NCBI GenBank assembly: GCA_043822065.1
Contig: JBDRCC010000022.1
Location: forward strand, 14,189 to 78,188
Origin: an archaeon
GTDB taxonomy: Archaea; Undinarchaeota; CAZHTU01; JBDRCC01
Direction: 5' to 3'
Length of the DNA stretch: 64,000 nucleotides
A program made the position numbers and the translations under genes. Numbering within the stretch: the stretch's first letter is position 1; each line of letters opens with the position of its first letter. A model generated the notes under the pieces. The model saw nothing but the letters and a program-made list of their open reading frames with translations. It was not told the DNA's origin and searched no databases. This document shows positions 1,378 through 21,739 of the stretch, in pieces.

Positions 1378-2085
1378 ATGAGGGTAAAGCTTATTTCGCA
1401 CACGCCAAATCCGGACATAGTATGTGCGGCGGCGGCTTACACAACGATAAAGGACAAGCCCCCAAGCGAGCTTTTCAAGGAGCTCATGAAGGACAAAAAA
1501 AGGGCTGAAAAAGTCCTCAGGAACGTCGTCGGGTACGGGCACCACTCAGTCATAGAGCACGCCTATTTCACGTTCAGCATCGAGGGCATCTCGAGGAGCT
1601 GCTCCCACCAGCTCGTGCGCCACAGGATGGCATCGTATTCCCAGCAGAGCCAGAGGTATGTCAAATTCGAGGAGATGAATTACGTCACGCCGAAGACCGT
1701 AAAGGGCGCGGTCAAGGCGAAATACGACAAAAAGATGGGAGAGATTGCTGACTTCTACCGCGAGATGCTTGACGCAGGGATACCTGCAGAGGACGCAAGG
1801 TTCGTATTTCCAAACGCAGCGCACACGAACATAGTCGTGACAATGAATGCAAGGTCGCTAATGAACTTCTTTGGCATAAGGTGCTGCTACAACGCGCAGT
1901 GGGAGATAAAGGGGCTCGCTGACAAAATGCTGGTTGAGGCCAGGAAGGTTGCCCCGGTAATATTCGAGAAAGCCGGGCCGCGCTGCCTGCATTACGGCTA
2001 CTGCCCCGAAGGGGCAAGGACTTGCGGCAGGATTACCGAGGTGAGGGGAGAATATGAAAGAGGCGCTAAGGGAAAAGGTAAGTGA
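1378..2085 (+). CDS. thyX: Flavin-dependent thymidylate synthase
   Basis: GHHSVIEH, SRSCSHQLVRHRMASYSQQSQRY and EDARFVFP motifs. Confidence 0.97.
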   Translation: MRVKLISHTPNPDIVCAAAAYTTIKDKPPSELFKELMKDKKRAEKVLRNVVGYGHHSVIEHAYFTFSIEGISRSCSHQLVRHRMASYSQQSQRYVKFEEMNYVTPKTVKGAVKAKYDKKMGEIADFYREMLDAGIPAEDARFVFPNAAHTNIVVTMNARSLMNFFGIRCCYNAQWEIKGLADKMLVEARKVAPVIFEKAGPRCLHYGYCPEGARTCGRITEVRGEYERGAKGKGK

Positions 2086-2605
2086 AAGCAACAGGGGCGC
2101 CAGTGACCTTGTAATGAAGAGCCTCAAGATTGCTGAGGCGGTAATGTGCCTTCCAGAGTACGAGGAGGCAGACATGATACTGTTTTATGTATCGCAGGGC
2201 GACGAGGTAAGGACGCACGGGCTGATTAAGGACTCGCTTTATATCGGCAAGGGGGTCGCCGTGCCAGTAAGCAACACCCAGACTGGCGAAATCGAGGTTT
2301 ATGAGATAAAGGACTTCTCCGAGCTTGTCCCAGGCGCCTACGGCATCCTTGAACCGGCGCCAAAGTTCAGGAGGCATATAGATAGCGCAGAGATAGACCT
2401 TGTAGTAGTCCCGGGCGTTGCCTTCGACGAAAACGGGAACCGGCTGGGGCGCGGCAAGGGCTATTACGACAAGTTCCTTGCAAAGCTCCCAAAGACGGTG
2501 CCAAGAATCGCCCTCGCTTACGAACACCAGATTGTGGGCGAGGTGCCTGCGGAAGGGCACGACGCCAAGGTGGACAAGATTATCACGGAAACGCGGGTTA
2601 TTTAG
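2054..2605 (+). CDS. 5-formyltetrahydrofolate cyclo-ligase
   Basis: YGILEP, IDLVVVPGVAFD..GNRLGRGKGYYD and HD..VDKIITE motifs. Confidence 0.95.
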   Translation: MKEALREKVSESNRGASDLVMKSLKIAEAVMCLPEYEEADMILFYVSQGDEVRTHGLIKDSLYIGKGVAVPVSNTQTGEIEVYEIKDFSELVPGAYGILEPAPKFRRHIDSAEIDLVVVPGVAFDENGNRLGRGKGYYDKFLAKLPKTVPRIALAYEHQIVGEVPAEGHDAKVDKIITETRVI

Positions 2606-2730
2606 GCGCCTTTTGCGTTTTTGCCTGGTTCGGGCATTTATCTGTTGCCTACCCAGGTCAATGGAGTACTTGACTCGTTGCAGAGGGAGTGGTTTTGCGT
2701 GAAAGAGTGAGTGAGGCATCCGATAATAGA

Positions 2731-2745
2731 AAAAATCATTTAAAG
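2731..2745 (+). promoter_or_regulatory. Putative BRE/TATA promoter of glyA-gcv operon
   Basis: AAAAATCATTTAAAG about 33 nt upstream of ATG 2778. Confidence 0.45.
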
Positions 2746-2777
2746 AGGTAACATATTAGTATCCGCAAGGGGTTTTG

Positions 2778-4031
2778 ATGGGAATCAGGGACAAGCTTCA
2801 GAAAGTAGACCAGCGAGTCTACGATTTGATTAAGAAAGAGGAGAAACGGCAGGAGTACGGGCTCGAGCTGATTCCCTCTGAGAATTATCCTTCCGTCGCT
2901 GTTATGGAGGCGGAAAAGAGCATTATGATGGACAAGTACGCTGAGGGCTACCCAGGCAAGAGGTATTACGGCGGGTGCGCAGTTATTGACGAGGTTGAGA
3001 GCCTGTGCATAGAAAGGGCGTGCAAGCTGATGAAAATGGACCACGCCAACGTCCAGAGCCAGACAGGGAGCATGGCGAACTTCCAGGTATTCCTTAGCAT
3101 GCTTAATTTCGGGGACACCTACCTGTCGATGGACCTGAGCCACGGGGGGCATTTGTCCCACGGGAGCCCGGTTAATTTCTCAGGCAAGTTCTACAATGTG
3201 ATTCCATATCACGTCAAGAGGGAAACTGGAAAAATTGATTACGAGGAGCTCGAGAGGCTGGCAAAGAAGCACAAGCCCAAGCTCATTCTGGCTGGGGCGT
3301 CGGCATATCCTGGAAAGTTCGATTTCAAGAGGTTCAGGGAGATTGCTGACCTGGTTGACGCCTGCCTGCTGGCTGACATTGCGCATTTCGCAGGGCTTAT
3401 AGTCTCCGGCGACCACCCGCACCCGGCGAAGCACTGCGATTTCATAACGAGCACGAGCCAGAAGACCTTGAGGGGCCCGAGGGGCGGGCTAATCTGGTGC
3501 AAAGGTGAGTATGCAAAGCAGATTGACAAGACAGTCTTCCCGATGACGCAGGGCGGACCGTACGAGCACGTGATTGCTGCGAAGGCTGTCTGCTTCAAGG
3601 AGGCGCTCACCTCGGCATTCAAGAAGTACGGGCACCAGATTGCGAAGAACGCCAAGGCGCTGTCCAGCGAGCTGATGAGGCTCGGCTGGAAGCTTTGCAT
3701 GGACGGAACGGAAAACCACCTTATGCTCATGAACATGATTGAGTACCCTGCAAAGGGCAAGGAAGTTCAGGAGCTGCTGGACTCTATCGGGCTGTGCGTG
3801 AACAAGCAGATGATACCTTTCGACCCGGAAAAGCCGTTCACCCCGAGCGGGGTGCGGCTTGGAACGCCCGCAGCTACGACAAGGGGAATGAGGGAGCGGG
3901 AGATGAAAAAGATTGCCGGCTTCATTGACAGGGCTATCAGGAACAGGGAAAACAAGAAAGAGATTTCCAAGATAAAAGGCGAGGTCAGGGGGCTTTGCAC
4001 TAAGTTCCCAATTTACAGGGTGCGAAAATGA
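2778..4031 (+). CDS. glyA: Serine hydroxymethyltransferase (bacterial/THF type)
   Basis: LELIPSENY, KYAEGYPGKRYYGG, GGHLSHG and KTLRGPRGG motifs. Confidence 0.97.
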   Translation: MGIRDKLQKVDQRVYDLIKKEEKRQEYGLELIPSENYPSVAVMEAEKSIMMDKYAEGYPGKRYYGGCAVIDEVESLCIERACKLMKMDHANVQSQTGSMANFQVFLSMLNFGDTYLSMDLSHGGHLSHGSPVNFSGKFYNVIPYHVKRETGKIDYEELERLAKKHKPKLILAGASAYPGKFDFKRFREIADLVDACLLADIAHFAGLIVSGDHPHPAKHCDFITSTSQKTLRGPRGGLIWCKGEYAKQIDKTVFPMTQGGPYEHVIAAKAVCFKEALTSAFKKYGHQIAKNAKALSSELMRLGWKLCMDGTENHLMLMNMIEYPAKGKEVQELLDSIGLCVNKQMIPFDPEKPFTPSGVRLGTPAATTRGMREREMKKIAGFIDRAIRNRENKKEISKIKGEVRGLCTKFPIYRVRK

Positions 4032-4324
4032 GGATTAAGAACGACTACAAAGTCGCAGGGGGGAAGCTCGTAAGGGTTGAAGGCGAATCAGCAGGAGAAA
4101 GGATACAGAGCATAAGGATAACTGGGGACTTTTTTATGTTCCCGGAAGATGGGATTGAGAAGATTGAGAATGGGCTTTCCGACTGCGCACTTGAGAAGGG
4201 CATGATAGCCAAGAAAACCGCTGATGTAATCGCTAAGAACAAGATACAAGTCCAGGGGTTCACGCCGGAGGACTTGGCGGAGGCAATCGTCGGCGGGGTT
4301 CAAAATGAAACGGCTTCACCTTGA
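4028..4324 (+). CDS. Lipoate-protein ligase C-terminal accessory subunit (LplB-like)
   Basis: KVAGGKLVRV...I.ITGDFFMFPEDGIEKIE.L motif; located in gcv operon. Confidence 0.85.
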   Translation: MRIKNDYKVAGGKLVRVEGESAGERIQSIRITGDFFMFPEDGIEKIENGLSDCALEKGMIAKKTADVIAKNKIQVQGFTPEDLAEAIVGGVQNETASP

Positions 4325-5426
4325 GGAATGGCACAACCAGCATGCAAGGATGGGTGAGTTCGCCGGCTGGCACACGCCGATATGGTATACGAGCATAAAT
4401 GACGAGCACATGACGGTTAGGGAAAAGGCAGGGGTGTTCGACATCTCGCACATGGGCGAATTCTATTTTGAGGGGAAGGACGCAGAGGCGTTTCTTGACA
4501 AAGTATGCGTAAGCGACATCGCAGGGCTGACGGCTGATGTTTCAAAGTACACATGCATACTGAACGACAACGGCGGCATAATGGACGAGGCAGTTATCTA
4601 CAGGATAGACGCGACCCACTTCAAGATGGTGTGCGACGCAGTCTGCTATGACAAGCTCAAGGGCTGGTTTGCAAAGGTCAGGGAAGGGATGGAGCTAAAT
4701 GTGATTGACAAGACGGAGGACCTTGTCCTTCTCGCGATACAGGGGCCGGACGCGTATTCAGTGTCTGACAAGATGGGGATTGCGGCGAGGGAGATGCCGA
4801 GGTTCGGGTTCAGGCATATAGCTTACAAAGGCAGGGAAGTCCTGCTATCAAATTCAGGGTACACTGGGGAGAATGGCTTCGAGCTGTTGTTTGATGATAA
4901 GAAGCCAGTACACCCTGACCCGAAGAAGGTCGGCGAGCCGACGTTTGCGCTTCAGGTATGGAATGACCTACTGTCGGCTGGCGCAAAGCCGGTCGGGCTT
5001 GGCTGCAGGGACAGCCTGAGGATTGAGTGCGGATTCACTTTGTACGAGCATGAGGACACTGAGGAAGTCAACCCCCTTGAGGTTAACTTCAACTGGATGA
5101 TAAAATGGGATAAGGATTTCATAGGCAAGGAAGCGCTGGTTAATGCGAAGGCTGCAGGAATAAAAAGGAAAATGAAGGGATTTGAGATGGCTGACCGCGC
5201 GATACCCAGGCAAGGGTATGATGTAATGCAGAATGGAAAAAAGGTCGGGGTTGTCACGAGCGGGACGATGCCGCCGACATCTGGGAAGGGCATAGGGCTC
5301 GGGCTTTTCGACTCGGCAGTCGAGGGGGACGTCGACATCATGATCCGTGGAAAGGAAACAAAAGCTAAAATAGTAAAGCCGCCTTTCTACGACAAGCAAA
5401 AGTACGGAATGAAACGAGAGGCTTAG
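4305..5426 (+). CDS. gcvT: Glycine cleavage aminomethyltransferase T
   Basis: FAGW, FDISHMG, LAIQGP, SGYTGENGFE and GLGCRDSLRIE motifs. Confidence 0.97.
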   Translation: MKRLHLEEWHNQHARMGEFAGWHTPIWYTSINDEHMTVREKAGVFDISHMGEFYFEGKDAEAFLDKVCVSDIAGLTADVSKYTCILNDNGGIMDEAVIYRIDATHFKMVCDAVCYDKLKGWFAKVREGMELNVIDKTEDLVLLAIQGPDAYSVSDKMGIAAREMPRFGFRHIAYKGREVLLSNSGYTGENGFELLFDDKKPVHPDPKKVGEPTFALQVWNDLLSAGAKPVGLGCRDSLRIECGFTLYEHEDTEEVNPLEVNFNWMIKWDKDFIGKEALVNAKAAGIKRKMKGFEMADRAIPRQGYDVMQNGKKVGVVTSGTMPPTSGKGIGLGLFDSAVEGDVDIMIRGKETKAKIVKPPFYDKQKYGMKREA

Positions 5427-5456
5427 AAAAGTATAATGGTCGGTAAGGAAAAGGTA

Positions 5457-5527
5457 TCGGAACCTACGAATCTGCAAGATTCGTACGAACGTACAAGCGA
5501 AGCTTGTAGTAAACGTAGTTTTTCTGA
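5457..5527. repeat. Palindromic double-hairpin element between gcvT and gcvH, flanked by a duplicated gcvT 3' end
   Basis: TACGAATCT-GCA-AGATTCGTA (5465-5485) and TACAAGC-GAA-GCTTGTA (5492-5508); TACGGAATGAAA at 5403 and 5529. Confidence 0.75.
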
Positions 5528-5554
5528 TTACGGAATGAAAAGGGAGGTTTAAGA

Positions 5555-5959
5555 ATGCAGGTAGGTGACTACAACATAAAGGAAGGTTTGTACTACCTTG
5601 ACTCGCACGAGTGGGTTGAGATTAAGGGGAATACTGCGACAATAGGCCTGAGCGACTACGCACAGAAGTCGCTTGGTGATGTTGCATACATCGACGTGCC
5701 GCAGGTTGGCAAGGAAGTGAGCCAGAAGGCTGAGCTTTGCGAAATTGAGTCGGTCAAGGCTGTTGACCATGTCTATTCGCCGCTGTCCGGAAAGGTTGTA
5801 GGGGCGAACAGCGAGCTAACGAATTCGCCGGATAAGATAAACAGCGACCCGTACGGTGCGTGGATTGTGAAGATTGAAATTAAGGACGAAAGCGAAAAGG
5901 CGAACCTGAAGGACGCCAACGCGTATGCTGAGTTCGTCAAGGGGCTTGCTGCAAAATAA
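5555..5959 (+). CDS. gcvH: Glycine cleavage H protein
   Basis: HEWV, GLSDYAQKSLGDV and ESVKAV (lipoyl-Lys) motifs, YSPLSG, DPYGAW. Confidence 0.97.
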   Translation: MQVGDYNIKEGLYYLDSHEWVEIKGNTATIGLSDYAQKSLGDVAYIDVPQVGKEVSQKAELCEIESVKAVDHVYSPLSGKVVGANSELTNSPDKINSDPYGAWIVKIEIKDESEKANLKDANAYAEFVKGLAAK

Positions 5960-5961
5960 TC

Positions 5962-7287
5962 ATGCGGTATATTCCAAACCTTTCAAGAAAGGACGAACTG
6001 CTGAAAGAGGCAGGGCTGAAAAGGGAGGACCTTTTCGGCGACGTCCCGAAGGACTGCAGGACGGCTGGGCTCAACCTCCCTGAGCCGCTGCCGGAGCTTG
6101 AGGTCAGGCGGAAGGTTATAGGGATTCTTTCCAAGAACAAAGTTCCGAGGGCAAGCTTCCTCGGCGGCGGGGTCAGGAACCACTTTGTGCCGGAGCACGT
6201 AAGGCATTTGGCAGGCAGGTCGGAGTTTTACACTGCGTACACGCCGTACCAGCCGGAGATTTCTCAGGGGATGCTCCAGACACTGTTCGAATACCAGTCA
6301 ATGGTTGCGGAGCTGACCGGGCTGGAAGCCGTCAACTCATCCATGTATGACTTTTCCACCGCACTTGCTGAGGCTGCATTGATGGCAAAGAGGGCGACCA
6401 GCAGGAGCGAATTCTTGGTTCCAAAGCTAATGTCGCCAAAGAGGAAGGCCGTGCTGAGGACGTACGTTCAGGGCGCAGGAATGAGCCTAATCGAAATTGA
6501 AGCCCAGAAGAATGGCCAGCTTGATTTGGAGGACCTGAAGAAAAAAGTCTCTGACAGGACGGCGGGCGTTTACGTTGAAAACCCGGCATACTTAGGGTAT
6601 TTTGAAGAGGGAGTTGAGGAAGTTTCTGATATAATCCACAAGGCAGGCGGTTTGTTTGTCGTGGGCGCAGACCTGATATCGCTCGGAATCGCAAAGGCGC
6701 CGGGGGACTACGGCGCAGACATAGTCATCGGAGAGGGGCAGCTGCTTGGGAACCCGCCCTCCTACGGCGGGCCGTACGTAGGCGCGTTCGCCGTCAGGGC
6801 AGACCAGGGCCTCGTGAGGAAAATGCCAGGCAGGATAATCGGGATGACGGAAGACGCGGACAAGAACCGCGGGTTCGTGATGACTCTCCAGACAAGGGAG
6901 CAGCACATAAGGCGGGAGAGCGCGACATCGAACATCTGCTCGAACGAGGCGCTGTGCGCGGTGACCGCGGCGATATACCTCGCCACGCTTGGGCGAAATG
7001 GGCTGAGAGAAGTTGCAGAGGCGTGCGCGAAGAATGCGAATTATGTTATGCGGGAGATTGGTAAGCTGGATGGGTTTGAGGCACCAGTGTATGATTCAAA
7101 GCACTTCTGCGAGTTCACAGTGAAGTGCCCCAAGGACGTTGACGGGATAAACCGCAAGCTGATGGAAAATGGGATTCATGGCGGGTCTAAGGTCGAGTTC
7201 CTAAAGGATACTGCACTGTACGCGGTGACCGAAGCCCACACGAAGAAGGACGTCGATGAGCTGCTGGAGGGGCTGAAGAATGTATAA
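5962..7287 (+). CDS. gcvPA: Glycine dehydrogenase subunit 1
   Basis: FYTAYTPYQPEISQG and TLQTREQHIRRE.ATSNICSN motifs. Confidence 0.97.
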   Translation: MRYIPNLSRKDELLKEAGLKREDLFGDVPKDCRTAGLNLPEPLPELEVRRKVIGILSKNKVPRASFLGGGVRNHFVPEHVRHLAGRSEFYTAYTPYQPEISQGMLQTLFEYQSMVAELTGLEAVNSSMYDFSTALAEAALMAKRATSRSEFLVPKLMSPKRKAVLRTYVQGAGMSLIEIEAQKNGQLDLEDLKKKVSDRTAGVYVENPAYLGYFEEGVEEVSDIIHKAGGLFVVGADLISLGIAKAPGDYGADIVIGEGQLLGNPPSYGGPYVGAFAVRADQGLVRKMPGRIIGMTEDADKNRGFVMTLQTREQHIRRESATSNICSNEALCAVTAAIYLATLGRNGLREVAEACAKNANYVMREIGKLDGFEAPVYDSKHFCEFTVKCPKDVDGINRKLMENGIHGGSKVEFLKDTALYAVTEAHTKKDVDELLEGLKNV

Positions 7288-8734
7288 GCAGGCACACGGC
7301 GACAGCAGGCTTATATTCGAGAAGTCGGACTCTTCGACAGGGTACTCCCTGCCAAAGCCATTCGGGACGGAATTTAGCATTCCCGAAAAGCTGAAGCGGA
7401 AGGAACTGAACCTCCCTGAGGTCAGCGAAGTCGAGGTCGTCAGGCATTACACTAATTTGTCCCAGCGGAACTTCGGGGTAGACAATGGGTTTTACCCGCT
7501 TGGGAGCTGCACCATGAAGTACAACCCGAAGATTAACGAGGCGATGGCTGGGCACGAGCTTGTTGTGGATATGCACCCGGAGCAACTGGAGGAAACTGCG
7601 CAGGGCTGCCTTGAGCTGGCGTATAATCTTGGCGAAGTCCTGAAAGAAGTAAGCGGAATGGACGCAGTAAGCCTCCAGCCGGCCGCCGGCGCGCACGGCG
7701 AGTATATAGGATGCATGATAATCCGCGCCTGCCACAAGGGCAAGGGGCAGGACAGGAATGAGATAATCGTCCCGGATTCGGCGCACGGGACAAATCCGGC
7801 GTCGGCGGCGATGGCTGGGTTCAAAGTGGTCCAGGTGCCTTCGCTTGAGGACGGGACAGTTGACATAGAAGCGCTGAAGGCGGCGGTGTCTGGCAGAACT
7901 GCCGGGCTCATGCTAACCAACCCGAACACCCTTGGAATATTCGAGCACAACATCAAAGAGATTGCGAGGATTGTGCACGGGGCGGGCGGGCTGTTGTATT
8001 ATGATGGGGCAAACTTAAACGCGATAATGGGCTTCTGCAAGCCAGGCGAGATGGGGTTTGACGTCATGCACATAAACCTGCACAAGACCTTTGCCACACC
8101 GCACGGCGGCGGCGGGCCTGGAAGCGGCCCGGTGCTTGTGAAAAAGGAACTGGCAAAATTCCTGCCAGTGCCAGTTGTTGAGAAAACGGGCAGCAAGTTC
8201 AGGCTGAATTATAACCTGCCGGAGTCGATTGGGCCTTCAAAGTCTTCGATAGGGAATTTTGGTGTGCTGGTCAAGGCGTACACTTACACGCTGACGATGG
8301 GGAAGATGCTCAAGGACGCCTCAGAGATTGCCGTCCTGAACTCGAACTACATGGCGCAGAAGCTGAAGCAGGACTATGAGATGCCGGGGAAGGAAATCCG
8401 AAAGCACGAGTTTGTGCTGTCAGCGGAGAAAATAAAAACCGAAACTGGCTGTTCGGCGCTGGACATCGGAAAACGGCTTTTGGACTACGGGCTGCATGCC
8501 CCGACGATTTATTTCCCCCTGATTGTCCACGAGGCGCTGATGATTGAGCCGACTGAGACGGAAGCCAAGGAAAATCTTGATAGGTATATTGACGCCCTGA
8601 AAAAAATAAAGGAAGAGGCGTACAAGAGCCCTGACCTTCTGCACGGGGCGCCGGCAAACACCTCGGTCAGGCGGCTGGATGTTACCAAGGCGATAAGGGA
8701 GCCTGTCCTCAGCTGGAAGATGGTTAAGAAGTAA
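7280..8734 (+). CDS. gcvPB: Glycine dehydrogenase subunit 2
   Basis: YPLGSCTMKYNP, SAHGTNPAS and NLHKTFATPHGGGGPG motifs. Confidence 0.97.
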   Translation: MYKQAHGDSRLIFEKSDSSTGYSLPKPFGTEFSIPEKLKRKELNLPEVSEVEVVRHYTNLSQRNFGVDNGFYPLGSCTMKYNPKINEAMAGHELVVDMHPEQLEETAQGCLELAYNLGEVLKEVSGMDAVSLQPAAGAHGEYIGCMIIRACHKGKGQDRNEIIVPDSAHGTNPASAAMAGFKVVQVPSLEDGTVDIEALKAAVSGRTAGLMLTNPNTLGIFEHNIKEIARIVHGAGGLLYYDGANLNAIMGFCKPGEMGFDVMHINLHKTFATPHGGGGPGSGPVLVKKELAKFLPVPVVEKTGSKFRLNYNLPESIGPSKSSIGNFGVLVKAYTYTLTMGKMLKDASEIAVLNSNYMAQKLKQDYEMPGKEIRKHEFVLSAEKIKTETGCSALDIGKRLLDYGLHAPTIYFPLIVHEALMIEPTETEAKENLDRYIDALKKIKEEAYKSPDLLHGAPANTSVRRLDVTKAIREPVLSWKMVKK

Positions 8735-13032: not shown

Positions 13033-14121
13033 TTAGCCTTTTTTCACCCCGTACCAGACATGGTCTATCAGGAAGTCTTGAAGGTTCTGCGGCGGGGTGT
13101 ACCTCCAGATATCTGGAACGCCAAGCTTCGCAAAGAGCGCCTTGAGGGATTCCTCGTTTTTTATGGACGTCATGTCATCCCGCTCCCGGTCTGTGAACAT
13201 TATAAAGCCGCCGGGCTTAAGAACCCGCAGGATCTCCCTAATGGTCGCCTCCTGCGAAAAAACATATGGCAGGACTGAAATGGCGATGGCGCAGTCAAAG
13301 GTTTTGCCCTTGGCCGGGATTTTGTCAGGCTTAATCTGGGCGAAGGATACATTTTTTACACCATGCTTTTTTGCCATCATGCCAGCCACCCGAAGCATCG
13401 AGGGGCTTGGGTCGACGGCAAGTGTCTTCTCTGAAACCTCCTCCAAACAAAACAAAGTTGAGCCGTCTCCGGTCCCATAGTCGATGCTATGTTTGAAAAG
13501 AGCTTTCCCTTTCTTATACTCGAAGCCGGCAAGCCTAAGGCAGTCCACAAGGGCTACGGCAAAAGCGCAGGAAGAGTATTCCCTCGCCCAGGAGTAAACC
13601 ATGGAAGAGACTGCCCACTCTATCCGCTCCATCTTTGCCCAAAGCCGGGGAATGTCCCGCTTAAGGTACCTAAGAGTTGGCTTAGAGAAGAAGACGGGGT
13701 AGTACATTTTGGTGCCGAGGTTTTCCGGGCTGTCCTCTGCAACGAGGAAGAGGTGGCATCTATCGCCTTTCGTGGGGAACAGCAGGACATAGGTCAGCTT
13801 AAACTTGCCAGGGGAGAATACACGCGTTAGCGAATATTCAAGGCCAAACGGCAGGTAGGATGCAATATTGAGTGATTCGTTTTCGACCAGCTTGACCTCC
13901 TTCGCGGCAAGCCGCTTTGCGAGGTTAGAATACTTCTCAAAGCGCTTAGCTGGCACGTTGTCGACGGGGATTGGGAATTCGAGTATTAAGCCGAATGACG
14001 TGTAGTCGTTGTGCGCAGACAGTATCTTGCCGACCAGCTCCGCAGTAGGCTTTTTCATGACGTCGGATTCCTCGTGAAGCTGTTTTCGGAATATGCCCTC
14101 TGCCTGCTCCGGATGTATCAT
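13033..14121 (-). CDS. Class I SAM-dependent methyltransferase with unknown N-terminal domain
   Basis: IDYGTGDG, AVDPSPSML, FDCAIA and EILRVLKPGG in C-terminal half; TATA-like TTATATA upstream of ATG 14121. Confidence 0.8.
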   Translation of the reverse strand: MIHPEQAEGIFRKQLHEESDVMKKPTAELVGKILSAHNDYTSFGLILEFPIPVDNVPAKRFEKYSNLAKRLAAKEVKLVENESLNIASYLPFGLEYSLTRVFSPGKFKLTYVLLFPTKGDRCHLFLVAEDSPENLGTKMYYPVFFSKPTLRYLKRDIPRLWAKMERIEWAVSSMVYSWAREYSSCAFAVALVDCLRLAGFEYKKGKALFKHSIDYGTGDGSTLFCLEEVSEKTLAVDPSPSMLRVAGMMAKKHGVKNVSFAQIKPDKIPAKGKTFDCAIAISVLPYVFSQEATIREILRVLKPGGFIMFTDRERDDMTSIKNEESLKALFAKLGVPDIWRYTPPQNLQDFLIDHVWYGVKKG

Positions 14122-14233
14122 ATTAGACGTATTGCAATATGGATATATAAGCCTAACCAAACGGCTTAGTCCTTGCGCTCAGAAAATAGCGATAAAAAGT
14201 AAGGTTTAAGACAGGAATAGCCTTTTAGGTTGC

Positions 14234-15010
14234 ATGCCATTCCTAAAAAAGCTCGCGCTGTTCTTCATTGGAGGATTTTTAGGGCTGTTCCTGAGCCTGT
14301 TCATCCTTGGGCAGGCGATGGACAAGACAGTATTTAGCGCAGATTTTTATGACGCAGAGTTTGAGAAGTACGGGATGTATGATTTTATGCTCGAACAGAT
14401 GACGCCGCCGGATGCCAGCCAGGAGACGCTGGAGTCTTTTGAAAAGTATTATACTAAGGACTGGCTCCGAGGCCAGTTCAGCGGGAACCTCCAAAACATA
14501 TTTGCCTACCTCAAAGGCGAAAGCGATGAGCTGGTACTTGGCTACTCGCTCGTAGAGATAAAAGAAAGGATGTTAGAGGACAACCCGACCGCAGACTTGA
14601 GCGGCATCCCGGACAGGACTGAAAATGCAGCCCTCCCTAACCAGGAGCTTGTCGAGAGCTTTCGGGCAGTCTTCATTTTATTCTACCGGTTTTCTGGCCT
14701 TGCCCTGCCACTGGCGGGGGCGTGTATCGTCTTAGTATTTGCAGTCTCGCGTGACGCAGTATTTACTGCCAGAAGAGTGGGCAGGTCGGTCATGAATACT
14801 GGGCTTTCATTCGTGGTGCTTTATTATGCCAGCGCGTATCTGCCCAGCGGAGGAATGCCTGCTGCAGGAGGGCTCTCGCTTGAGGTTGTTGCACCCATTA
14901 TGGCGGACGCGCTCCTGCCATTTAGGGCGTACGGCTTCTGGTTTGCTGGCATTGGGGCGGTCGTGTACGCACTTGCCATAGCTGCGGGCAGGCATCGTGG
15001 CAATCAATAA
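14234..15010 (+). CDS. Hypothetical membrane protein
   Basis: N-terminal TM, acidic loop, about 3 C-terminal hydrophobic segments. Confidence 0.75.
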   Translation: MPFLKKLALFFIGGFLGLFLSLFILGQAMDKTVFSADFYDAEFEKYGMYDFMLEQMTPPDASQETLESFEKYYTKDWLRGQFSGNLQNIFAYLKGESDELVLGYSLVEIKERMLEDNPTADLSGIPDRTENAALPNQELVESFRAVFILFYRFSGLALPLAGACIVLVFAVSRDAVFTARRVGRSVMNTGLSFVVLYYASAYLPSGGMPAAGGLSLEVVAPIMADALLPFRAYGFWFAGIGAVVYALAIAAGRHRGNQ

Positions 15011-15048
15011 AGTTTATTAAAGCGAACAGGTAATAGGGGACTGGGGAT

Positions 15049-15738
15049 ATGTTCGGCAAAAAGAAATATTTGGACAACAAGCGGGACACTGTCTACTGCC
15101 CGATACGCGAAAGCATGTGCAGTATTGCCGAAATCTGCCCTGCGGCAGGCAAGGATGACGATTACCAGGGGCTTGCCCTCCTCATAGGTGTTGCGGAGGA
15201 CGAGACCTGGAGGCAGTTTGCAGAAATTATGCCTGACACCTATTTTGTGCTGGCTGAGCTTGATGGGGAATCGCTCGATACGCAGATTAAAAGAGCAAGA
15301 AAGGCTGGAATTGAAAACTTCGGCGTAAAGCAGGTTTCTGGAAGTGGGGTCCCGTTCAGCGACAAGATGTTCAAGCGCATTGAATCCCATTACGTGCTTA
15401 CTTCCCAAGGCAGCCGGGGAAAGGTTAGGTTTGCAAAACCTATCCTGGACGAGTATTTCCGCGTGCTAGACGACGATGGCGTGCTGCTGATATCTGGGGA
15501 ATTGAGGATAAAGGGCGGGGACGAGGAAGACTATGTAAAAGAGCTCCACGCATATCTGGAGGGAAAGAGGAAAGAGGGGTACACGGTCGGCATGCACACT
15601 ATGCCGCTCTCTGAGACTGGGACATACTACGGGCAGGTAAACATAACGTACTACATCTCAAAGGATAAGGCTGCCCTCAAGCGTGAACTCAACAGGGTCA
15701 AAAAAGTATACGGCCTGAAGGACGTTGAGCTAAAGTAG
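15049..15738 (+). CDS. Hypothetical protein (degenerate methyltransferase-like fold possible)
   Basis: Long ORF with host-like codon use; EYFRVLDDDGVLLI resembles the MTase C-terminal motif. Confidence 0.6.
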   Translation: MFGKKKYLDNKRDTVYCPIRESMCSIAEICPAAGKDDDYQGLALLIGVAEDETWRQFAEIMPDTYFVLAELDGESLDTQIKRARKAGIENFGVKQVSGSGVPFSDKMFKRIESHYVLTSQGSRGKVRFAKPILDEYFRVLDDDGVLLISGELRIKGGDEEDYVKELHAYLEGKRKEGYTVGMHTMPLSETGTYYGQVNITYYISKDKAALKRELNRVKKVYGLKDVELK

Positions 15739-16177: not shown

Positions 16178-16942
16178 TTATCTTTTATAAAGCCACTCGT
16201 CCGTGCCGTATTTTGTTTTCGCAAGCTCCTCTGCGAGCTCAAGCTCATAGTCAGTAAGGCCTGAGACCTTGAACTTGCCAAAGACCTTTTCGAAGCCCTT
16301 CGCCATCGCCTTTTCGACTTCCGCGCCGCCGACGTTTTTGCTTTTCCCAATCAGTTCGAGCTGCTGGTTTATGTTCGTAACCCTGTCCTTAATTGACTGG
16401 AGGATTTTGTCCGCCATCTTCGCCTTCGAGACGTTGAGGACTGAGAAAAGCAGGTCCATGTCTGTTCCGTACATCATGGTCCCGTGCTGGAGGACTGCGC
16501 CCCATTTCCGGGTCTGTGCCGAGCCAGAAATCTTCTTCCCGCCTGCGAGCACGTCGTTTATCGGCTTGAACTCCGCGGCGATTCCAAACTCCGCAAGAGC
16601 GTTGACAAGCCCCTGGCAGATTAGCTTGTAGGAGTCCTGGATGTTGCTGCTGACCGATTTTTCCGAGAGGATGACAGAATAGGTTATCTCGCCGTTGTAA
16701 TCGTGAAAAACCGCCCCTCCTCCAGTTATCCTCCGGACTGCGTCGACGCTAGACTTCAGCCGGTTTTCGTGGAATATCTCCTGCTCATAAGACTGGAAGT
16801 AGCCAAGGCTGACTGATGATGGGTTGAACTTGAAAAGCCTGAAAGTGTCCGGAACCTTGCCCTCGGACCTGGCACGGAGGATTGCTTCGTCGATTGCCAT
16901 TGACAACGCGGCGTTATCTTCGCGTAATGGAACCAGCCTCAT
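16178..16942 (-). CDS. lplA: Lipoate-protein ligase / octanoyltransferase catalytic domain
   Basis: MAIDEA, VRRITGGGAVFHD, NDV...KKISGSAQ and LQHGT motifs. Confidence 0.92.
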   Translation of the reverse strand: MRLVPLREDNAALSMAIDEAILRARSEGKVPDTFRLFKFNPSSVSLGYFQSYEQEIFHENRLKSSVDAVRRITGGGAVFHDYNGEITYSVILSEKSVSSNIQDSYKLICQGLVNALAEFGIAAEFKPINDVLAGGKKISGSAQTRKWGAVLQHGTMMYGTDMDLLFSVLNVSKAKMADKILQSIKDRVTNINQQLELIGKSKNVGGAEVEKAMAKGFEKVFGKFKVSGLTDYELELAEELAKTKYGTDEWLYKR

Positions 16943-17792
16943 TTTCCAATTTGAAATAAAACTCCGCAGCTTTATAGGAGCTTCGCACGAACGGTCCTGA
17001 CGCCACATACCTGAACCCTTTTTCAATGCCAACCCGCTCGTATTCCTCGAACTTGGAGGGGTGGACATACTCTGCGACTTCGGCGTTTTCCTTTGTCGGC
17101 TGGAGGTACTGCCCTATAGTCAGGAAATCTGTGCCTGCCGAGCGCAGGTCGTCCATCGCTTCCTCAACTTCGTCCTGGGTTTCGCCGACACCGACCATTA
17201 TGCCAGATTTTGTATATAAATTTGGATCGATTTCCTTAAGCTTTTTGAGAACTGCAAGTGACGTTCCGTATCCTGCGCGCCTGTCCCGCATTTTTGGAGC
17301 CAGCCTTGCAACGACTTCGATATTGTGGGCGACGACATTCGGCCGGGCGGAAGAAATCATAGTCAGGCGTTTTTCGTCGGCTCCAAAATCAGGGATGAGC
17401 GCTTCGACAGGTATGCCTGCCGCACGCACGGACTTGATGCAGCTTGCAAAGTGACCTGCGCCGGCGTCAGGAAGGTCGTCCCGGTCGACAGAAGTCAGGA
17501 CTGCGTACTTTAACCCCCATTTGGTTGCAACCTTCGCCAGGCTCGCAGGCTCTTTTGAGTTCAGCGGCTCGCCTTTGCTGCCTGTGCGTACTGAACAAAA
17601 GCTGCAGTGGCGGGTGCAAACGTGGCCCATGAGCATAAAGGTTGCAGTCCCAGAATCCCAGCAGGCGCCCTGGTTCGGGCAGCGCGCGCCCTGGCAGACA
17701 GTATAAAGCCCATGCTCGCTGAGGTCCCTGAGAATGCTGTTGTAATTGGGGCTGAATTTTGGGTGGACCCTGAGCCACTCTGGCTTTCTCAT
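16914..17792 (-). CDS. lipA: Lipoyl synthase
   Basis: RKPEWL, TVCQGARCPNQGAC, CTRHCSFC, TSVDRDDL and VRSSY motifs. Confidence 0.97.
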   Translation of the reverse strand: MRKPEWLRVHPKFSPNYNSILRDLSEHGLYTVCQGARCPNQGACWDSGTATFMLMGHVCTRHCSFCSVRTGSKGEPLNSKEPASLAKVATKWGLKYAVLTSVDRDDLPDAGAGHFASCIKSVRAAGIPVEALIPDFGADEKRLTMISSARPNVVAHNIEVVARLAPKMRDRRAGYGTSLAVLKKLKEIDPNLYTKSGIMVGVGETQDEVEEAMDDLRSAGTDFLTIGQYLQPTKENAEVAEYVHPSKFEEYERVGIEKGFRYVASGPFVRSSYKAAEFYFKLENEAGSITRR

Positions 17793-17842
17793 GTCGATAT
17801 TATGGGCGCAAAGCAATTAAAAGTTGTCGGATTAGCAGTAGC

Positions 17843-18964
17843 ATGCTCGCGGGGTTCATAGTAAATCCCATAGCCGGGATGGGTGGAAAAGTAGGCTTAA
17901 AAGGCACCGACGGCCAGGTCAGGAGGGCGCTAGAACTTGGGGCAAAAATGGTAGCGCCGGAGCACGCAAGGGAGTTTCTTGGCGCGCTGAAGAAGGACAT
18001 AGAATTTATCACCTGCCCTGGCGAAATGGGCGAGGATTACCTAAGGGGCTCGAGGTTCGGCTTTGAGGTTGCAGGCAAAAAAAAGCTCCAGCATGGCGAG
18101 GATGGCATGCCGAAAACGACTGCCGCAGACACTAAGAGGATGGCAAAAAGGATTCTCGAGGAAAAGCCGCACATAATCGTCTTTGTTGGCGGGGACGGGA
18201 CTGCAAGAGATGTATACTCGGCAGTCAAGGACAACATCCCCATTCTTGGAGTCCCTTCCGGTGTCAAGGTCTACTCCTCCGTCTTCGGAGGATCACCAGA
18301 TGAGTCAGCTGCGCTCTTAGATATGTTTGCGGACGGGGCAGTGCCTGCAAAAGCCTGCGAAGTCCTCGACATTGATGAAGCAAAATACAGAAAGGGCATT
18401 CTAGACACAAAGCTGGTGGGCTACGCAAAAGTGCCGTACTACGAGTCGCTGATACCTGGCGGCAAATCAGCGAGCACGATTTCAGAGGAGGAGGAGCACG
18501 AGGCGATTGCGAAGAGGATAGCTTACGAGATTGATGCGGGACTGTACCTGTTCGGGCCTGGGACGACGGTAGCCGAATGCTCGAAGATGCTCGGGCTAAA
18601 GCACACCCTCTTAGGGGTTGACATAGTGGAAGTCGACAGGCAGAGGAAACCGTGCGTGCTGAAGCTTGACGCAAACGAGAGGGACATTCTCGCGGAGATG
18701 AAAAGGCACGGGAACAGGGTGAAGGTAATCGTCTCCCCCATCGGAAAGCAGGGGTTCATCTTTGGCAGGGGGAACCAGCAGATTTCAGAAAACGTGCTGA
18801 AATACGTTTCCAAGGAGGACGTCCTGGTTGTCGCGACGCAGAACAAGCTGAACGAGGTCAAATTCTTGAGGGTCGACGTCAACCCAGAGATAAATTCAAG
18901 GTTCCAGGGATACATGAAGGTCATTGTCAGCTACAGTGACAGCAAAATACAAAAGGTAGTCTGA
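17843..18964 (+). CDS. ATP-NAD kinase / AcoX-like family protein
   Basis: VNPIAGMGGKVGLKGTDG, VGGDGTARD, PSGVKVYS and QGFIFGRGNQQIS motifs. Confidence 0.88.
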   Translation: MLAGFIVNPIAGMGGKVGLKGTDGQVRRALELGAKMVAPEHAREFLGALKKDIEFITCPGEMGEDYLRGSRFGFEVAGKKKLQHGEDGMPKTTAADTKRMAKRILEEKPHIIVFVGGDGTARDVYSAVKDNIPILGVPSGVKVYSSVFGGSPDESAALLDMFADGAVPAKACEVLDIDEAKYRKGILDTKLVGYAKVPYYESLIPGGKSASTISEEEEHEAIAKRIAYEIDAGLYLFGPGTTVAECSKMLGLKHTLLGVDIVEVDRQRKPCVLKLDANERDILAEMKRHGNRVKVIVSPIGKQGFIFGRGNQQISENVLKYVSKEDVLVVATQNKLNEVKFLRVDVNPEINSRFQGYMKVIVSYSDSKIQKVV

Positions 18965-18978
18965 CATCAGGATAAAAT

Positions 18979-20286
18979 ATGAAAGCCGTAGTAATCGGGG
19001 CTGGGGTTGCAGGGACGACTGCCGCGCTTGAACTTAAAAAGCTGGACCGGCGGTCAGAAGTGGTCCTGCTTGAAGCAACCAAATACCCGGAATACTCCCA
19101 CTGCGGAATGCCGTTTTCCCTTGAGGGCATGTTCCCGCCCGAGAGCCTTATCTCCCACCCGGCAGAGTTCTATAAACGTGCAGGGATAGACCTCCGGCTG
19201 AATGCAAAAGTCAAAAAAATAAAGCCGAAGGAGCGGAAAGTAATTCTTGAGGGCAAAGAAGAGGGTTATGACTACCTAATAATTGCCACTGGCGGAAAGG
19301 CGTTTGTCCCGCCAATTGAGGGAATTGACAAGGAAGGGGTAGCCGGCCTCAACGTAATGGACGAGCTCAAGGAGCTCTTGCGGCTTTCTAAGAAATCAAA
19401 GAGGGCGGTCGTCATAGGCGCCGGCCTCATCGGGCTTGAGACTGCAGTTGCGCTGGAGAGCCTTGGCATTGAAGTGACCGTCGTAGAGATGTTGAACCAG
19501 ATCATCCCGATAATCGACAAGGACATGGCAGAGTATGCCCAGCGCCACATGGAATCCAGAGGAGTAGAATTCAAGCTCGAGAAAAAAGTAGAGCGCATAC
19601 TCGGCAAGGGCAATGTTGAGGGCGTCATGGTTTCTGGGGAGAAAATTGGCTGTGACCTTGTCGTCCTTGCGACAGGCACGCTGGCGAACTCCGGCCTGGC
19701 GAAGGACGCAGGGCTTAAGGCTGGCCCGTTCGGAATAGAGGTTGACGAGTACCTGCGAACAAGCGATGAGAGGATATACGCCATCGGGGACAGTATCCAG
19801 GTAAAAGACTTTTTTTGCAGGAAGTCGTCGGCTGCGCGGCTGAGCAGCATTGCGCTTATCCAGGGAAGAGTCGCCGCGGCAAACATCGCCGGCAGAAAAA
19901 AGAGGTTCGACGGCGGGCTCAACTCCACTGTGACAAAGCTCTTCGACCTGGAAGTGGGGCGGGTTGGGCTTGATTCGAACCTGGCTGGATGCCTTGGGGT
20001 TGAGGTGCAGAGCTCAAAATTCAAGGGCGCATCCAGGATTGAGTATTACCCTGATAAAAAGGACGTGGTTGTAAAGATAATATTCGACAAAAGAGGGAAA
20101 GTGCTTGGGTTCCAGTCGGTCGGGCCGGACTCGTTTGGAAGGGTTGCGGCGCTGGCAATCGGCATACAAAAGGGTGTGACGCTTGAGGACCTGACAAAAG
20201 TGGAGTTCCCCTTCGCCCCGCCAATTTCGCCGGCAATCGAGCCTATCCACGTCGCCGCCGAGCTCGGGCTCAGGAGGCTGAAATGA
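18979..20286 (+). CDS. NADH oxidase / CoA-disulfide reductase family flavoprotein
   Basis: GAGVAG, single redox Cys in YSHCGMPF, GAGLIGLE, IYAIGD and FAPPIS motifs. Confidence 0.9.
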   Translation: MKAVVIGAGVAGTTAALELKKLDRRSEVVLLEATKYPEYSHCGMPFSLEGMFPPESLISHPAEFYKRAGIDLRLNAKVKKIKPKERKVILEGKEEGYDYLIIATGGKAFVPPIEGIDKEGVAGLNVMDELKELLRLSKKSKRAVVIGAGLIGLETAVALESLGIEVTVVEMLNQIIPIIDKDMAEYAQRHMESRGVEFKLEKKVERILGKGNVEGVMVSGEKIGCDLVVLATGTLANSGLAKDAGLKAGPFGIEVDEYLRTSDERIYAIGDSIQVKDFFCRKSSAARLSSIALIQGRVAAANIAGRKKRFDGGLNSTVTKLFDLEVGRVGLDSNLAGCLGVEVQSSKFKGASRIEYYPDKKDVVVKIIFDKRGKVLGFQSVGPDSFGRVAALAIGIQKGVTLEDLTKVEFPFAPPISPAIEPIHVAAELGLRRLK

Positions 20287-21128
20287 CTGCAAAGCTGATG
20301 GATGGGAAGGCGGCTGCGCAGGAGGTAGTCGACGCGCTGAAAAAGGAGGTATCCAGCTTCACTAAAAAGCCAGGGCTTGCGCTTATTCTCGTCGGAGACG
20401 ACCCGGCGTCGAAGATTTATACTGCCAGCAAGGAGAAGCGCTGTGCAGAGATAGGCATCAGGTCGGAGATGAACCGCCTGCCGGAGAAGACGAGCCAGAG
20501 GGAGCTCATTTCGCTGATTGAGAAGCTGAACAAAGACAACAGCATCCACGGGATAATCGTCCAGCTTCCCCTGCCAAAGCACCTTGACCCGGCCGAAGCT
20601 GCAGCCAAGATAAGCCAGGACAAGGATGTCGACGGGATTTCCCCTGCAAATATGGGGCGGCTTTTGAGGGGGGAAGACTGCCTTGTGCCGTGCACCCCGC
20701 AGGGCATAATGTACCTGCTGAAAAAGTATGGGGTTGAGATAAACGGCAAACGGGCGTCAATCGTCGGGAGGTCAAACATCGTAGGCAAACCGGTTTCAGT
20801 CCTTCTGCTCAACGAGCACGCAACAGTAACCATATGCCATTCGAGGACGGCAGACCTTTGCGCAGAGACAAAAAAGGCTGACATCCTCGTCGCCGCGGTT
20901 GGGAAAGCAAGGATGATTAAGGCAGACATGGTCAAGAAAGGGGCGGCAGTCATCGACGTCGGCATGAACCGGACCGCAGACGGCCTCGCGGGTGATGTGG
21001 ATTTTGACTCAGTGAGCAAAATCGCAGGCTGGATAACGCCAGTGCCGGGCGGGGTGGGCTTGATGACTGTTGCTATGCTCATGAAAAACACGGTTGAAGC
21101 CTACAAGAGGCTGGAGGGCTTGAAATGA
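20283..21128 (+). CDS. folD: Methylene-THF dehydrogenase/cyclohydrolase
   Basis: IVQLPLP, KDVDG, PCTPQG, GRSNIVGKP and TPVPGGVG motifs. Confidence 0.97.
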   Translation: MTAKLMDGKAAAQEVVDALKKEVSSFTKKPGLALILVGDDPASKIYTASKEKRCAEIGIRSEMNRLPEKTSQRELISLIEKLNKDNSIHGIIVQLPLPKHLDPAEAAAKISQDKDVDGISPANMGRLLRGEDCLVPCTPQGIMYLLKKYGVEINGKRASIVGRSNIVGKPVSVLLLNEHATVTICHSRTADLCAETKKADILVAAVGKARMIKADMVKKGAAVIDVGMNRTADGLAGDVDFDSVSKIAGWITPVPGGVGLMTVAMLMKNTVEAYKRLEGLK

Positions 21129-21739
21129 CAAACATTGCAGTTCTTGTTTCCGGCCGCGGCTCAAACCTGCAGGCGCTGATTGACCGGGCTGAGTCGGGAT
21201 ACATCCCTGGCAAAATCACAGTCGTCATTTCCAACAAGAAAGATGCCTACGGGCTCGAGAGGGCGCGAAAGCATGGAATCCCAGCGGAGTATGTCCATAT
21301 GGAACCAGGCGAAGCGCGCGAGGAATATGACAAAAAAATAATTACGGTTCTTGAAAAATACAAGGTGGACCTCGTGTGCCTCGCAGGCTACATGTTCATT
21401 GTCAGCCCGCAATTCGTCAAGAGATACAAGTACTGCATGATGAATGTCCACCCGGCTTTGCTTCCGGCATTTGCAGGCGGGACGCACGCCCAGAAAGAGG
21501 CGATTGACTGGGGCGTCAAGGTCGCAGGATGCACGGTCCATTTCGTCACAGACGAGGTTGACGGAGGGCCGATAATAGTCCAAAAGACGGTCCCTGTGCT
21601 TGAGAACGATAATATTGAAACGATCTCAAGAAGGATTCTCAGGCAGGAGCACAGGGCGTATTCGGAAGCAGTCAGGCTCTTCTGCGAGGGGAGACTCAAA
21701 GTGGAGGGCAGAAAAGTGAAGGTGCTCCCTGAGAAATGA
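21125..21739 (+). CDS. purN: Phosphoribosylglycinamide formyltransferase
   Basis: SGRGSNLQA, LAGYM, NVHPALLP and GCTVHFV..EVDGGPII motifs. Confidence 0.97.
   Translation: MTNIAVLVSGRGSNLQALIDRAESGYIPGKITVVISNKKDAYGLERARKHGIPAEYVHMEPGEAREEYDKKIITVLEKYKVDLVCLAGYMFIVSPQFVKRYKYCMMNVHPALLPAFAGGTHAQKEAIDWGVKVAGCTVHFVTDEVDGGPIIVQKTVPVLENDNIETISRRILRQEHRAYSEAVRLFCEGRLKVEGRKVKVLPEK

Follow-up and report, generated by a model that had tools for sequence, protein, structure and literature searches.

Glycine cleavage requires the re-oxidation of its lipoyl arm. The 64,000-nucleotide stretch of archaeal DNA analysed here (hereafter the window; contig C22:14189-78188) comes from an assembly (G000) of 1,026,769 bases in 22 contigs that is 82.35% complete, and it encodes the T, H, PA and PB components of the glycine cleavage system, with no canonical L component (dihydrolipoyl dehydrogenase, Lpd) in the 82% of the genome that is assembled; the unassembled 18% qualifies every gene absence given below for this assembly. 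We propose that a single-cysteine FAD/NAD(H) disulfide oxidoreductase encoded on the plus strand at 18979..20286 (P0001, Cys42) is an NAD(H):lipoyl-GcvH oxidoreductase serving here as a non-orthologous L protein, a proposal to which we give an even chance, and we rate the looser claim that P0001 acts on lipoyl-GcvH in some direction somewhat higher. P0001 is a credible replacement for the L protein because its relatives in other archaea adjoin gcvH.

Absence of Lpd and layout of the flavoprotein operon

No Lpd is detectable in the assembly. The Lpd model TIGR01350 (cut-off 408.8 bits) returns three matches, the best of which, at 138.9 bits, is the flavoprotein itself, and a six-frame scan of the whole assembly for the Lpd redox-site motif C[LVIA][NH]xGC[IVTM]P finds none; the statement of a first-pass annotation of this DNA that no open reading frame (ORF) carries the CxxxxC motif of Lpd therefore holds assembly-wide, both by hidden Markov model and by motif. 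Four proteins match Pyr_redox_2, namely P0001, a GltD/NfnB-like iron-sulfur flavoprotein with a Fer4_20 domain, encoded together with its partner on contig C1, a geranylgeranyl reductase and an amine-oxidase-like protein. The assembly yielded no thioredoxin reductase, and the only disulfide-reductase-type flavoprotein and the only lipoyl protein found in it are P0001 and GcvH, respectively. Across a sample of 41 genomes (G000 and 40 relatives), Lpd exceeds its cut-off in one (G036) and comes near it in G028 (404.7 bits); it stays below the cut-off throughout the 16 other members of the phylum that were sampled, and is over or near it in one of the five other relatives that carry GcvPB.

The flavoprotein gene is the second of four, in the order AcoX-like (17843..18964), flavoprotein, folD (20283..21128) and purN (21125..21739), all on the plus strand, with lipA (16914..17816) divergent on the minus strand. 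A gap of 14 nt separates the AcoX-like stop from the flavoprotein ATG, and ATGA overlaps join the flavoprotein stop to the folD start and the folD stop to the purN start, which confirms an earlier description of an operon divergent from lipA with overlaps from the flavoprotein onward. The downstream genes encode a methylenetetrahydrofolate (CH2-THF) dehydrogenase/cyclohydrolase (FolD; NF010783, 351.3 bits vs a cut-off of 333) and a glycinamide ribonucleotide formyltransferase (PurN; TIGR00639, 242.6 bits vs 150.1), and the divergent gene a lipoyl synthase (LipA; TIGR00510, 336.7 bits vs 310.25). The true lipA start is likely, from the sequence, to be the ATG at 17792 (MRKPEWL), with which a 50-bp A/T-rich spacer precedes the AcoX-like ATG.

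Family assignment of the flavoprotein

P0001 has 435 residues and matches Pyr_redox_2, Pyr_redox and Pyr_redox_dim (PF07992 at 200.5 bits, PF00070 at 93.1 bits and PF02852 at 53.8 bits), with an FAD-binding fold (GAGVAG, residues 7-12), an NAD(P)H-binding fold (GAGLIG, residues 147-152) and a C-terminal dimerisation domain. Its redox motif is EYSHCGMPF, with the single Cys42 and no CxxxxC; this cysteine aligns with Cys48 of the CoA-disulfide reductase (CoADR) of Pyrococcus horikoshii (PhCoADR) and is invariant in all 109 aligned relatives. Both the folds and the lone cysteine in S-x-x-C-(G/A)-x-P that define the single-cysteine (group 3) pyridine nucleotide-disulfide oxidoreductases (PNDORs) are thus found in P0001. 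The second beta-strand of the NAD fold ends in Glu170, and by a rule that we take as given the enzyme presumably prefers NAD.

The best NCBIfam match of P0001 is the CoADR model TIGR03385, at 325.7 bits against a cut-off of 578.8; lower scores come from a second CoADR model (NF007123, 289 bits, cut-off 458), the water-forming NADH oxidase (NOX) model NF046103 (184.6 bits, cut-off 600) and the Lpd model TIGR01350 (144.1 bits, cut-off 408.8, aligned only over model positions 118-439). Because these scores fall well short of the curated threshold for each named subfamily, P0001 lies outside the characterised ones; judged by its sequence, it is a member of the single-cysteine branch that belongs to no characterised subfamily and is not an orthologue of Lpd.

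The nearest solved structures, all aligned over the full length with E-values of 1e-64 to 6e-76, are PhCoADR (4fx9, 3kd9), NoxA-3/Npsr of A. fulgidus (6pfz) and CoADR-RHD of B. anthracis (3icr). P0001 shares with these single-cysteine PNDORs both cofactor-binding folds (FAD and NAD(P)H) and the dimerisation domain, but it falls below all equivalog cut-offs of the CoADR and NOX families, has no rhodanese domain, and carries S59, H60 and E355 in place of the PhCoADR channel residues Y65, Y66 and H367. Its clade is moreover linked to gcvH and lipoate genes, a linkage that we did not find reported for the characterised CoADR, NOX and Npsr enzymes. Lpd belongs to the same superfamily of FAD/NAD disulfide oxidoreductases, and as proposed here the two enzymes would share a substrate and a role in the cycle, but P0001 lacks the N-terminal CxxxxC redox disulfide of Lpd and has a lone cysteine in a different motif.

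Recurrent linkage to genes of the lipoyl carrier

Metagenome contigs from JGI were scanned with an alignment of 22 homologues (A1), which yielded 80 loci whose neighbours were identified by tblastn with the proteins of the window. A gcvH gene lies within 1.3 kb of the flavoprotein homologue in 23 of the 80 (36-41% identity to P0001), upstream and on the same strand in all but one of these, with a spacing that is often 0-5 nt, and in five of eight examples inspected only 0-7 nt separate the gcvH stop from the flavoprotein start. The lipoyl lysine (K68) is invariant in 18 of 18 aligned GcvH sequences, 14 of them flavoprotein-adjacent. Two further metagenomic loci read flavoprotein-lipA-x-lplA (L159) and flavoprotein-gcvPA (L195). 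At the former (L159:159-5829) the full order is an Fe-S protein, a 440-aa radical-SAM protein, the flavoprotein, lipA, a 279-aa ORF without family and lplA, and the radical-SAM and 279-aa ORFs may belong to lipoate assembly.

A quick IQ-TREE tree was built from 109 sequences, namely 88 loci with an ORF of at least 380 aa and 21 database proteins, with shorter loci and those lacking an ORF omitted. P0001 groups with P0003 (Undinarchaeota), P0034 and the NoxA-2 proteins of Thermococcales (SH-aLRT 99), and this group is nested in a superclade of 59 rows (support 92) that also holds a Bathyarchaeia/Nitrososphaerota clade, a clade of L159, L195 and L161, and an Asgard/560-aa clade. Within the Bathyarchaeia/Nitrososphaerota clade the upstream context can be read in 26 rows, and in 20 of these the flavoprotein gene is gcvH-adjacent. 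In the other 50 rows of the tree, which comprise the neighbouring CoADR-RHD clade and others, the lone gcvH neighbour belongs to the long-branch L027 (G031:C2:126707-130954; 31% identity), where gcvH, a 122-aa ORF, the flavoprotein gene and lplA form a cluster.

Counted over relatives that are not independent of one another, five types of arrangement tie the superclade and one distant relative to gcvH, lipA, lplA or gcvPA: gcvH upstream; gcvH downstream or convergent; flavoprotein-lipA-lplA or flavoprotein-gcvPA; lipA divergent from an AcoX-like-flavoprotein pair, as in Undinarchaeota; and gcvH-x-flavoprotein-lplA. An apparent 576-aa GcvH-flavoprotein fusion at L134 was rejected as an artefact, its gcvH and flavoprotein matches lying in different frames, and none of 120 listed flavoprotein homologues carries a PF01597 domain.

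Within the phylum, a contig of 6,445 bp from a second Undinarchaeota record carries the AcoX-like/flavoprotein pair (P0003/P0122), and the GcvPB of the window has an 84% identical counterpart in Undinarchaeota. GcvPB and the AcoX-like gene were found in 0 of the 16 other phylum genomes and the flavoprotein only in G002, at 32% identity. Outside the phylum, Thermococcales are among the sources of the closest relatives of both GcvPB and the flavoprotein. This distribution hints that the AcoX-like gene, the flavoprotein and GcvPB were acquired together as a module.

The linkage bears most directly on the possibility that P0001 is an ordinary NAD(P)H oxidase or CoA-disulfide/persulfide reductase engaged in redox balance or in oxygen or sulfur detoxification, whose place in the operon is incidental, with Lpd encoded in the unassembled part of the genome or replaced by another route. 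We consider this unlikely, if still the most serious of the alternatives. Its family matches speak for it, with the CoADR model at the head of the list and the NADH oxidase models after it, as do the nearest solved structures (NoxA-3/Npsr, CoADR-RHD and PhCoADR), the name 'NADH oxidase' that relatives bear in databases and the 82% completeness of the genome; as the only enzyme of its type found in the assembly, P0001 may also have to cover general thiol redox. P0001 falls far below every equivalog cut-off, however, and the recurrence of gcvH, lipA and lplA beside members of its superclade, against a single such case among the 50 rows of other clades, would not be expected of a generic oxidase; the failure of Lpd to exceed its cut-off in any of the 16 other phylum genomes, with one over or near it among the five other GcvPB-bearing relatives, argues against an Lpd that merely escaped assembly here.

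Predicted complex of P0001 with GcvH

A modelled complex with GcvH had been proposed as a check in the first-pass annotation, and we predicted one from a P0001 dimer (two copies of residues 1-432, alignment A1) and the GcvH of the window (alignment A3). It scores 0.66 (0.64, 0.66 and 0.67 in the individual runs) against 0.00 for the best of three controls, with at least 92% of contacts shared between runs and a pLDDT of at least 89 for GcvH. In calibration, 58 of 80 solved complexes attained that mark, as did 2 of 110 mismatched pairs, a yardstick that holds only roughly for the P0001-GcvH model.

In the model, residues 67-71 of GcvH, which include K68, contact residues 60-68 of one P0001 subunit and residues 347-355 and 418-432 of the other. 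Alignment to 4fx9 places S59, H60, P61 and E355 of P0001 at Y65, Y66, P67 and H367 of PhCoADR, and H60, P61 and E355 are among the modelled contacts. Passages of PMC6026696 describe a widening of the PhCoADR substrate channel upon replacement of Y65, Y66, P67 and H367. Because the modelled contacts coincide with these channel residues, the lipoyl-lysine loop is predicted to sit at the mouth of the channel leading to Cys42, a placement that supports the predicted binding. The residues at the GcvH interface, E355, E428 and R432 among them, follow only mild clade-specific trends, which we did not use as evidence.

Distribution across archaea and points against an L-protein role

Several observations weigh against an L-protein role for P0001 or its clade. 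In P0001 itself, Ser272 takes the place of a cysteine that 102 of the 109 relatives have in a GDC motif, and Phe412 that of the tyrosine of a YAPP motif, shared by at least 90% of the 22 sequences in A1. Docking of an enzyme to a carrier is weak evidence in general, and the alignment supplied for the model lies outside the calibration. The words lipoamide, lipoic and lipoyl do not occur in two papers on the single-cysteine enzyme class that were searched for them. The remaining points come from the distribution of the clade, in Bathyarchaeia, in Thermococcales and in one genome (G037) that encodes neither Lpd nor a homologue of P0001.

Among 101 Bathyarchaeia genomes, tallied by hand, 23 carry an orthologue of the flavoprotein (at least 60% identity to P0070), and in at least 21 of these gcvH lies within 500 bp of it, a lower bound from a comparison of two coordinate tables, one of which lists 150 of 198 matches. 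The layout departs from the usual one in G105 (convergent), G111 (gcvH downstream) and G126 (gcvH 5 kb off). GcvPB is present in eight of the 23 orthologue-bearing genomes and was not found at E<=1e-80 in the other 15; 14 of the 23 encode Lpd or an Lpd-like protein (E<=1e-60). Among the matches listed, the sole GcvH lies within 500 bp of the flavoprotein in 13 of the 15 GcvPB-negative genomes. Taken from the side of the P protein, 21 of 64 GcvPB-positive genomes are without an Lpd-like gene, and 12 of these 21 have a relative at least 48% identical. Because GcvPB often goes undetected and an Lpd-like gene is often present, the gcvH-flavoprotein pair would have a role outside glycine cleavage and would form no simple complement to Lpd; by its gene content the Bathyarchaeia pair looks like a lipoyl-protein module of its own. 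Since the pair occurs without GcvPB both there and in G031, where the gcvH-flavoprotein-lplA cluster has no detectable GcvPB for company, the common denominator of the clade is GcvH and not the P protein, and its general job would be that of a redox partner of lipoyl-GcvH rather than strictly of a glycine-cleavage L protein.

The pair, tightly coupled, is kept without a detected P protein in G114, G144, G138, G076, G081, G117, G129, G096, G065, G091, G059, G123 and G120. Genes for GAPDH and PGK of bacterial type often come after it in Bathyarchaeia, and at L123 a gene for an HdrD-like CCG/4Fe-4S protein does so.

These genomes give a foothold to a second alternative, in which GcvH and the flavoprotein form a free-standing, NAD(P)H-driven lipoyl relay to peroxiredoxin-type, Hdr-type or other disulfide acceptors and at most moonlight in glycine cleavage in the present archaeon. 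The 15 of 23 Bathyarchaeia without detectable GcvPB, 13 of them with their sole listed GcvH beside the flavoprotein, and the gcvH-x-flavoprotein-lplA locus of G031 point towards it; a wider redox role of GcvH also fits because passages of PMC9723716 propose that GcvH in Culexarchaeia carries a disulfide for complexes of the Hdr type, and because the gene after the pair at L123 is HdrD-like. We nevertheless think it improbable as an account of P0001, since gcvT-H-PA-PB contains the only GcvH of the window and the flavoprotein gene shares its operon with folD and purN, whose products use one-carbon (C1) units, while no downstream acceptor was identified and the conserved neighbours in Bathyarchaeia are GAPDH and PGK.

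In a sample of 61 Thermococcales genomes, all at least 90% complete, GcvPB is present in 61 of 61, Lpd over its cut-off in none and an Lpd-like gene (E<=1e-60) in 12. The nearest named relatives of P0001 are the NoxA-2 proteins of this order (44-46% identity), and a NoxA-2 orthologue 79-100% identical to P0032 of Pyrococcus abyssi occurs in 60 of 60 Thermococcaceae. This orthologue is without lipoyl-related or gcv neighbours in the contexts examined, and a second paralogue is equally universal in the order. The Thermococcales distribution is thus consistent with an L-protein role for the clade and does not discriminate between the readings. In passages of a 2024 report (PMC11032457), Thermococcus kodakarensis is described as having several genes with only limited homology to L protein and an L protein that is unassigned; lipoate synthesis in Thermococcales is ascribed, in parts of PMC9585515, to LipS1/LipS2 rather than LipA.

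The archaeal genome G037 (99% complete, 1.2 Mb; regions C1:297548-300689 and C1:387454-388305) has gcvH-PA-PB, no Lpd and no homologue of P0001 at E<=1e-30. Its sole Pyr_redox_2 proteins measure 326 aa, the size of a thioredoxin reductase, and 407 aa, and it has no AcoX-like gene. As G037 has gcv genes and neither enzyme, archaea would have more than one way to dispense with Lpd, and this one may, going by its gene content, use a different substitute for the L protein.

A third alternative, that re-oxidation is carried out by something unrelated, be it a thioredoxin-type system as reportedly in Eubacterium acidaminophilum or the NfnB/GltD-like flavoprotein on C1, with P0001 only recycling the NAD(P)H from glycine cleavage and FolD as an 'NADH sink', finds some encouragement in G037, with its thioredoxin-reductase-sized flavoprotein and one other, and in the GltD/NfnB-like pair of G000, but is very improbable, as no thioredoxin reductase was found in the assembly and a sink would leave the translational coupling of relatives to gcvH unexplained.

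Of the original suggestion that the flavoprotein replaces the L protein, the gene linkage in five arrangements, the docking over controls and the position of P0001 as the only such enzyme found speak for keeping the core; the Bathyarchaeia pairs that occur without a P protein and beside Lpd-like genes, together with a genome that has neither enzyme, do not fit a general rule by which the flavoprotein simply stands in wherever Lpd is missing.

Proposed reaction and its significance

In the reaction that we propose, P0001 would be a homodimeric FAD enzyme with the lipoyl arm of GcvH as its substrate. The P protein would place an aminomethyl group on lipoyl-H and the T protein would hand the C1 unit to tetrahydrofolate, leaving dihydrolipoyl-H to form a mixed disulfide with Cys42, to be resolved by the other thiol of the lipoyl group. 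With FAD relaying the electrons to NAD+, P0001 would re-oxidise dihydrolipoyl-H in place of the two-cysteine Lpd, by what would amount to the CoADR reaction run on a tethered dithiol. The CH2-THF formed could feed FolD and PurN, encoded in the same operon, as well as the nearby ThyX, GlyA and PurH. The role of L protein is suggested for this archaeon in particular by the lone GcvH inside gcvT-H-PA-PB and by the place of the enzyme in one operon with folD and purN. What the data show is which genes are there, that no Lpd is detectable, how the operon is laid out, to which family P0001 belongs and that its clade recurs beside gcvH, lipA, lplA and gcvPA; that P0001 takes this substrate, runs in this direction and prefers NAD we infer.

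A wider proposal, which we hold more tentatively and give slightly less than an even chance, is that the single-cysteine CoADR/NOX-type clade provides the missing dihydrolipoyl dehydrogenase of anaerobic archaea (Thermococcales, Bathyarchaeia, Undinarchaeota and others), forming with GcvH a two-gene NAD(H)-lipoyl module that would close the glycine cleavage cycle in genomes with P and T proteins and, in genomes without them, act as an independent lipoyl-based disulfide relay. We found no assignment of a NOX/CoADR-type enzyme as L protein or as GcvH partner in the literature, in a search that left subscription journals and supplements outside its reach. What would be new, if the proposal is right, is that another branch of the same flavoenzyme superfamily was recruited to the lipoyl carrier.

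The present archaeon and 49 of the 61 sampled Thermococcales have P, T and H genes and no Lpd-like gene, and with a named candidate the question of their L protein can be put to direct experiment in an organism amenable to genetics. Many database entries named 'NADH oxidase' or 'FAD-dependent oxidoreductase' would then have to be re-labelled, and should the pair also work without a P protein, archaeal thiol biology would gain a lipoyl-protein redox system. The same gene set would explain the supply of C1 units to purine and thymidylate synthesis in a reduced genome of 1 Mb.

The AcoX-like protein

The first gene of the operon encodes a protein of the NAD-kinase family (P0002; PF01513 at 74.2 bits, PF20143 at 50.4 bits and DAGK_cat). 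With its Pfam NAD_kinase N and C domains and retained GGDGT motif, it deserves at family level the label of AcoX-like kinase given to it at first reading; it has no match in NCBIfam. Its structure model (pLDDT 89.3, pTM 0.57) finds only weak fold matches in the PDB, to GT-B glycosyltransferases, DgkB and NADK (TM <=0.3), a search of the protein atlas returned only its own family, and a literature search for COG3199 found nothing. Two roles could be set aside: P0002 is not the only NAD kinase of the cell, a canonical NadK-type ORF being encoded separately on contig C20, and it is no substitute for Lpd, having no flavin fold and co-occurring with Lpd in G028, G042 and G043.

The AcoX-like gene is present in five of the six GcvPB-positive genomes of the 41-genome sample, and among the GcvPB-negative ones only fragments were found, in G033. 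The gene immediately before it is gcvPB in G032 and G034 and gcvH in G028; at L038 it likewise comes after gcvH. Across 80 AcoX-like loci, a GcvPA/PB-type pair (35-51% identical to the subunits of the window) adjoins in 19 and gcvH in two, with a NOX-like gene nearby in one and Lpd within 5 kb in one. Other recurring neighbours are genes for threonine dehydrogenase (tdh), a Kbl-type glycine C-acetyltransferase, HisC/CobD-like and TrpB-like pyridoxal phosphate (PLP) enzymes and short-chain dehydrogenases/reductases, so that the gene recurs with genes of glycine and threonine breakdown in both archaea and bacteria (L029, L030, L031, L038, L041, L065-L116).

P0002 can be likened to AcoX of the acoXABC operons of Cupriavidus necator and Pseudomonas putida by its NAD-kinase/DAGK-type signature and by the cluster names 'ATP-NAD/AcoX kinase', and each of the two is encoded beside a lipoyl-dependent enzyme system; the archaeal AcoX-like genes accompany gcv, tdh, kbl and other PLP-enzyme genes, whereas bacterial AcoX accompanies acoABC. 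The function of bacterial AcoX is stated as unknown in passages of PMC10107126.

The one-carbon module and remaining features of the window

The window is archaeal, and the named homologues closest to several of its proteins are from 'Candidatus Undinarchaeota'; the genomes of sampled relatives of the same phylum measure 0.6-1.1 Mb. The glycine cleavage genes belong to a compact one-carbon module on the plus strand (1378-8734). It opens with thyX (1378..2085; TIGR02170, 192.4 bits vs a cut-off of 87.9), for an FAD-dependent thymidylate synthase that consumes CH2-THF, and glyA (2775..4031; NF000586, 561.8 bits vs 335), for serine hydroxymethyltransferase, followed by lplB (4028..4288; PF10437, 34.1-34.5 bits vs 24), for the small C-terminal subunit of lipoate-protein ligase. 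The T protein is encoded by gcvT (4305..5426; NF001567, 387.5 bits vs 300), the H protein by gcvH (5555..5959; PF01597, 133 bits), with the lipoyl-lysine K68 in an ESVKA motif, and the two P protein subunits by gcvPA (5962..7287; NF001696, 555.8 bits vs 364) and gcvPB (7280..8734; NF003346, 727.4 bits vs 441).

The large subunit of lipoate-protein ligase is encoded on the minus strand by lplA (16178..17068), identified through PF21948 (175.8 bits), with NF053750 below its cut-off at 256 bits; the family match starts near residue 40 of the ORF. All the components listed at first reading (T, H, P1, P2, LipA and LplA/B) are thereby found in the window by family models.

Between the module and lplA, the plus-strand ORFs at 14234-15010 and 15049-15738 have no match in Pfam or NCBIfam, and the region 13033-15738 holds a minus-strand, methyltransferase-like ORF of 375 aa with a weak ArsM-type match. 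At the edge of the window, which cuts it, a 452-aa ORF (4-1362) matches a GTP-dependent dephospho-CoA kinase in residues 20-97 and, from residue 108 on, RecJ-type nucleases of archaea, and may be a fusion or two adjoining genes.

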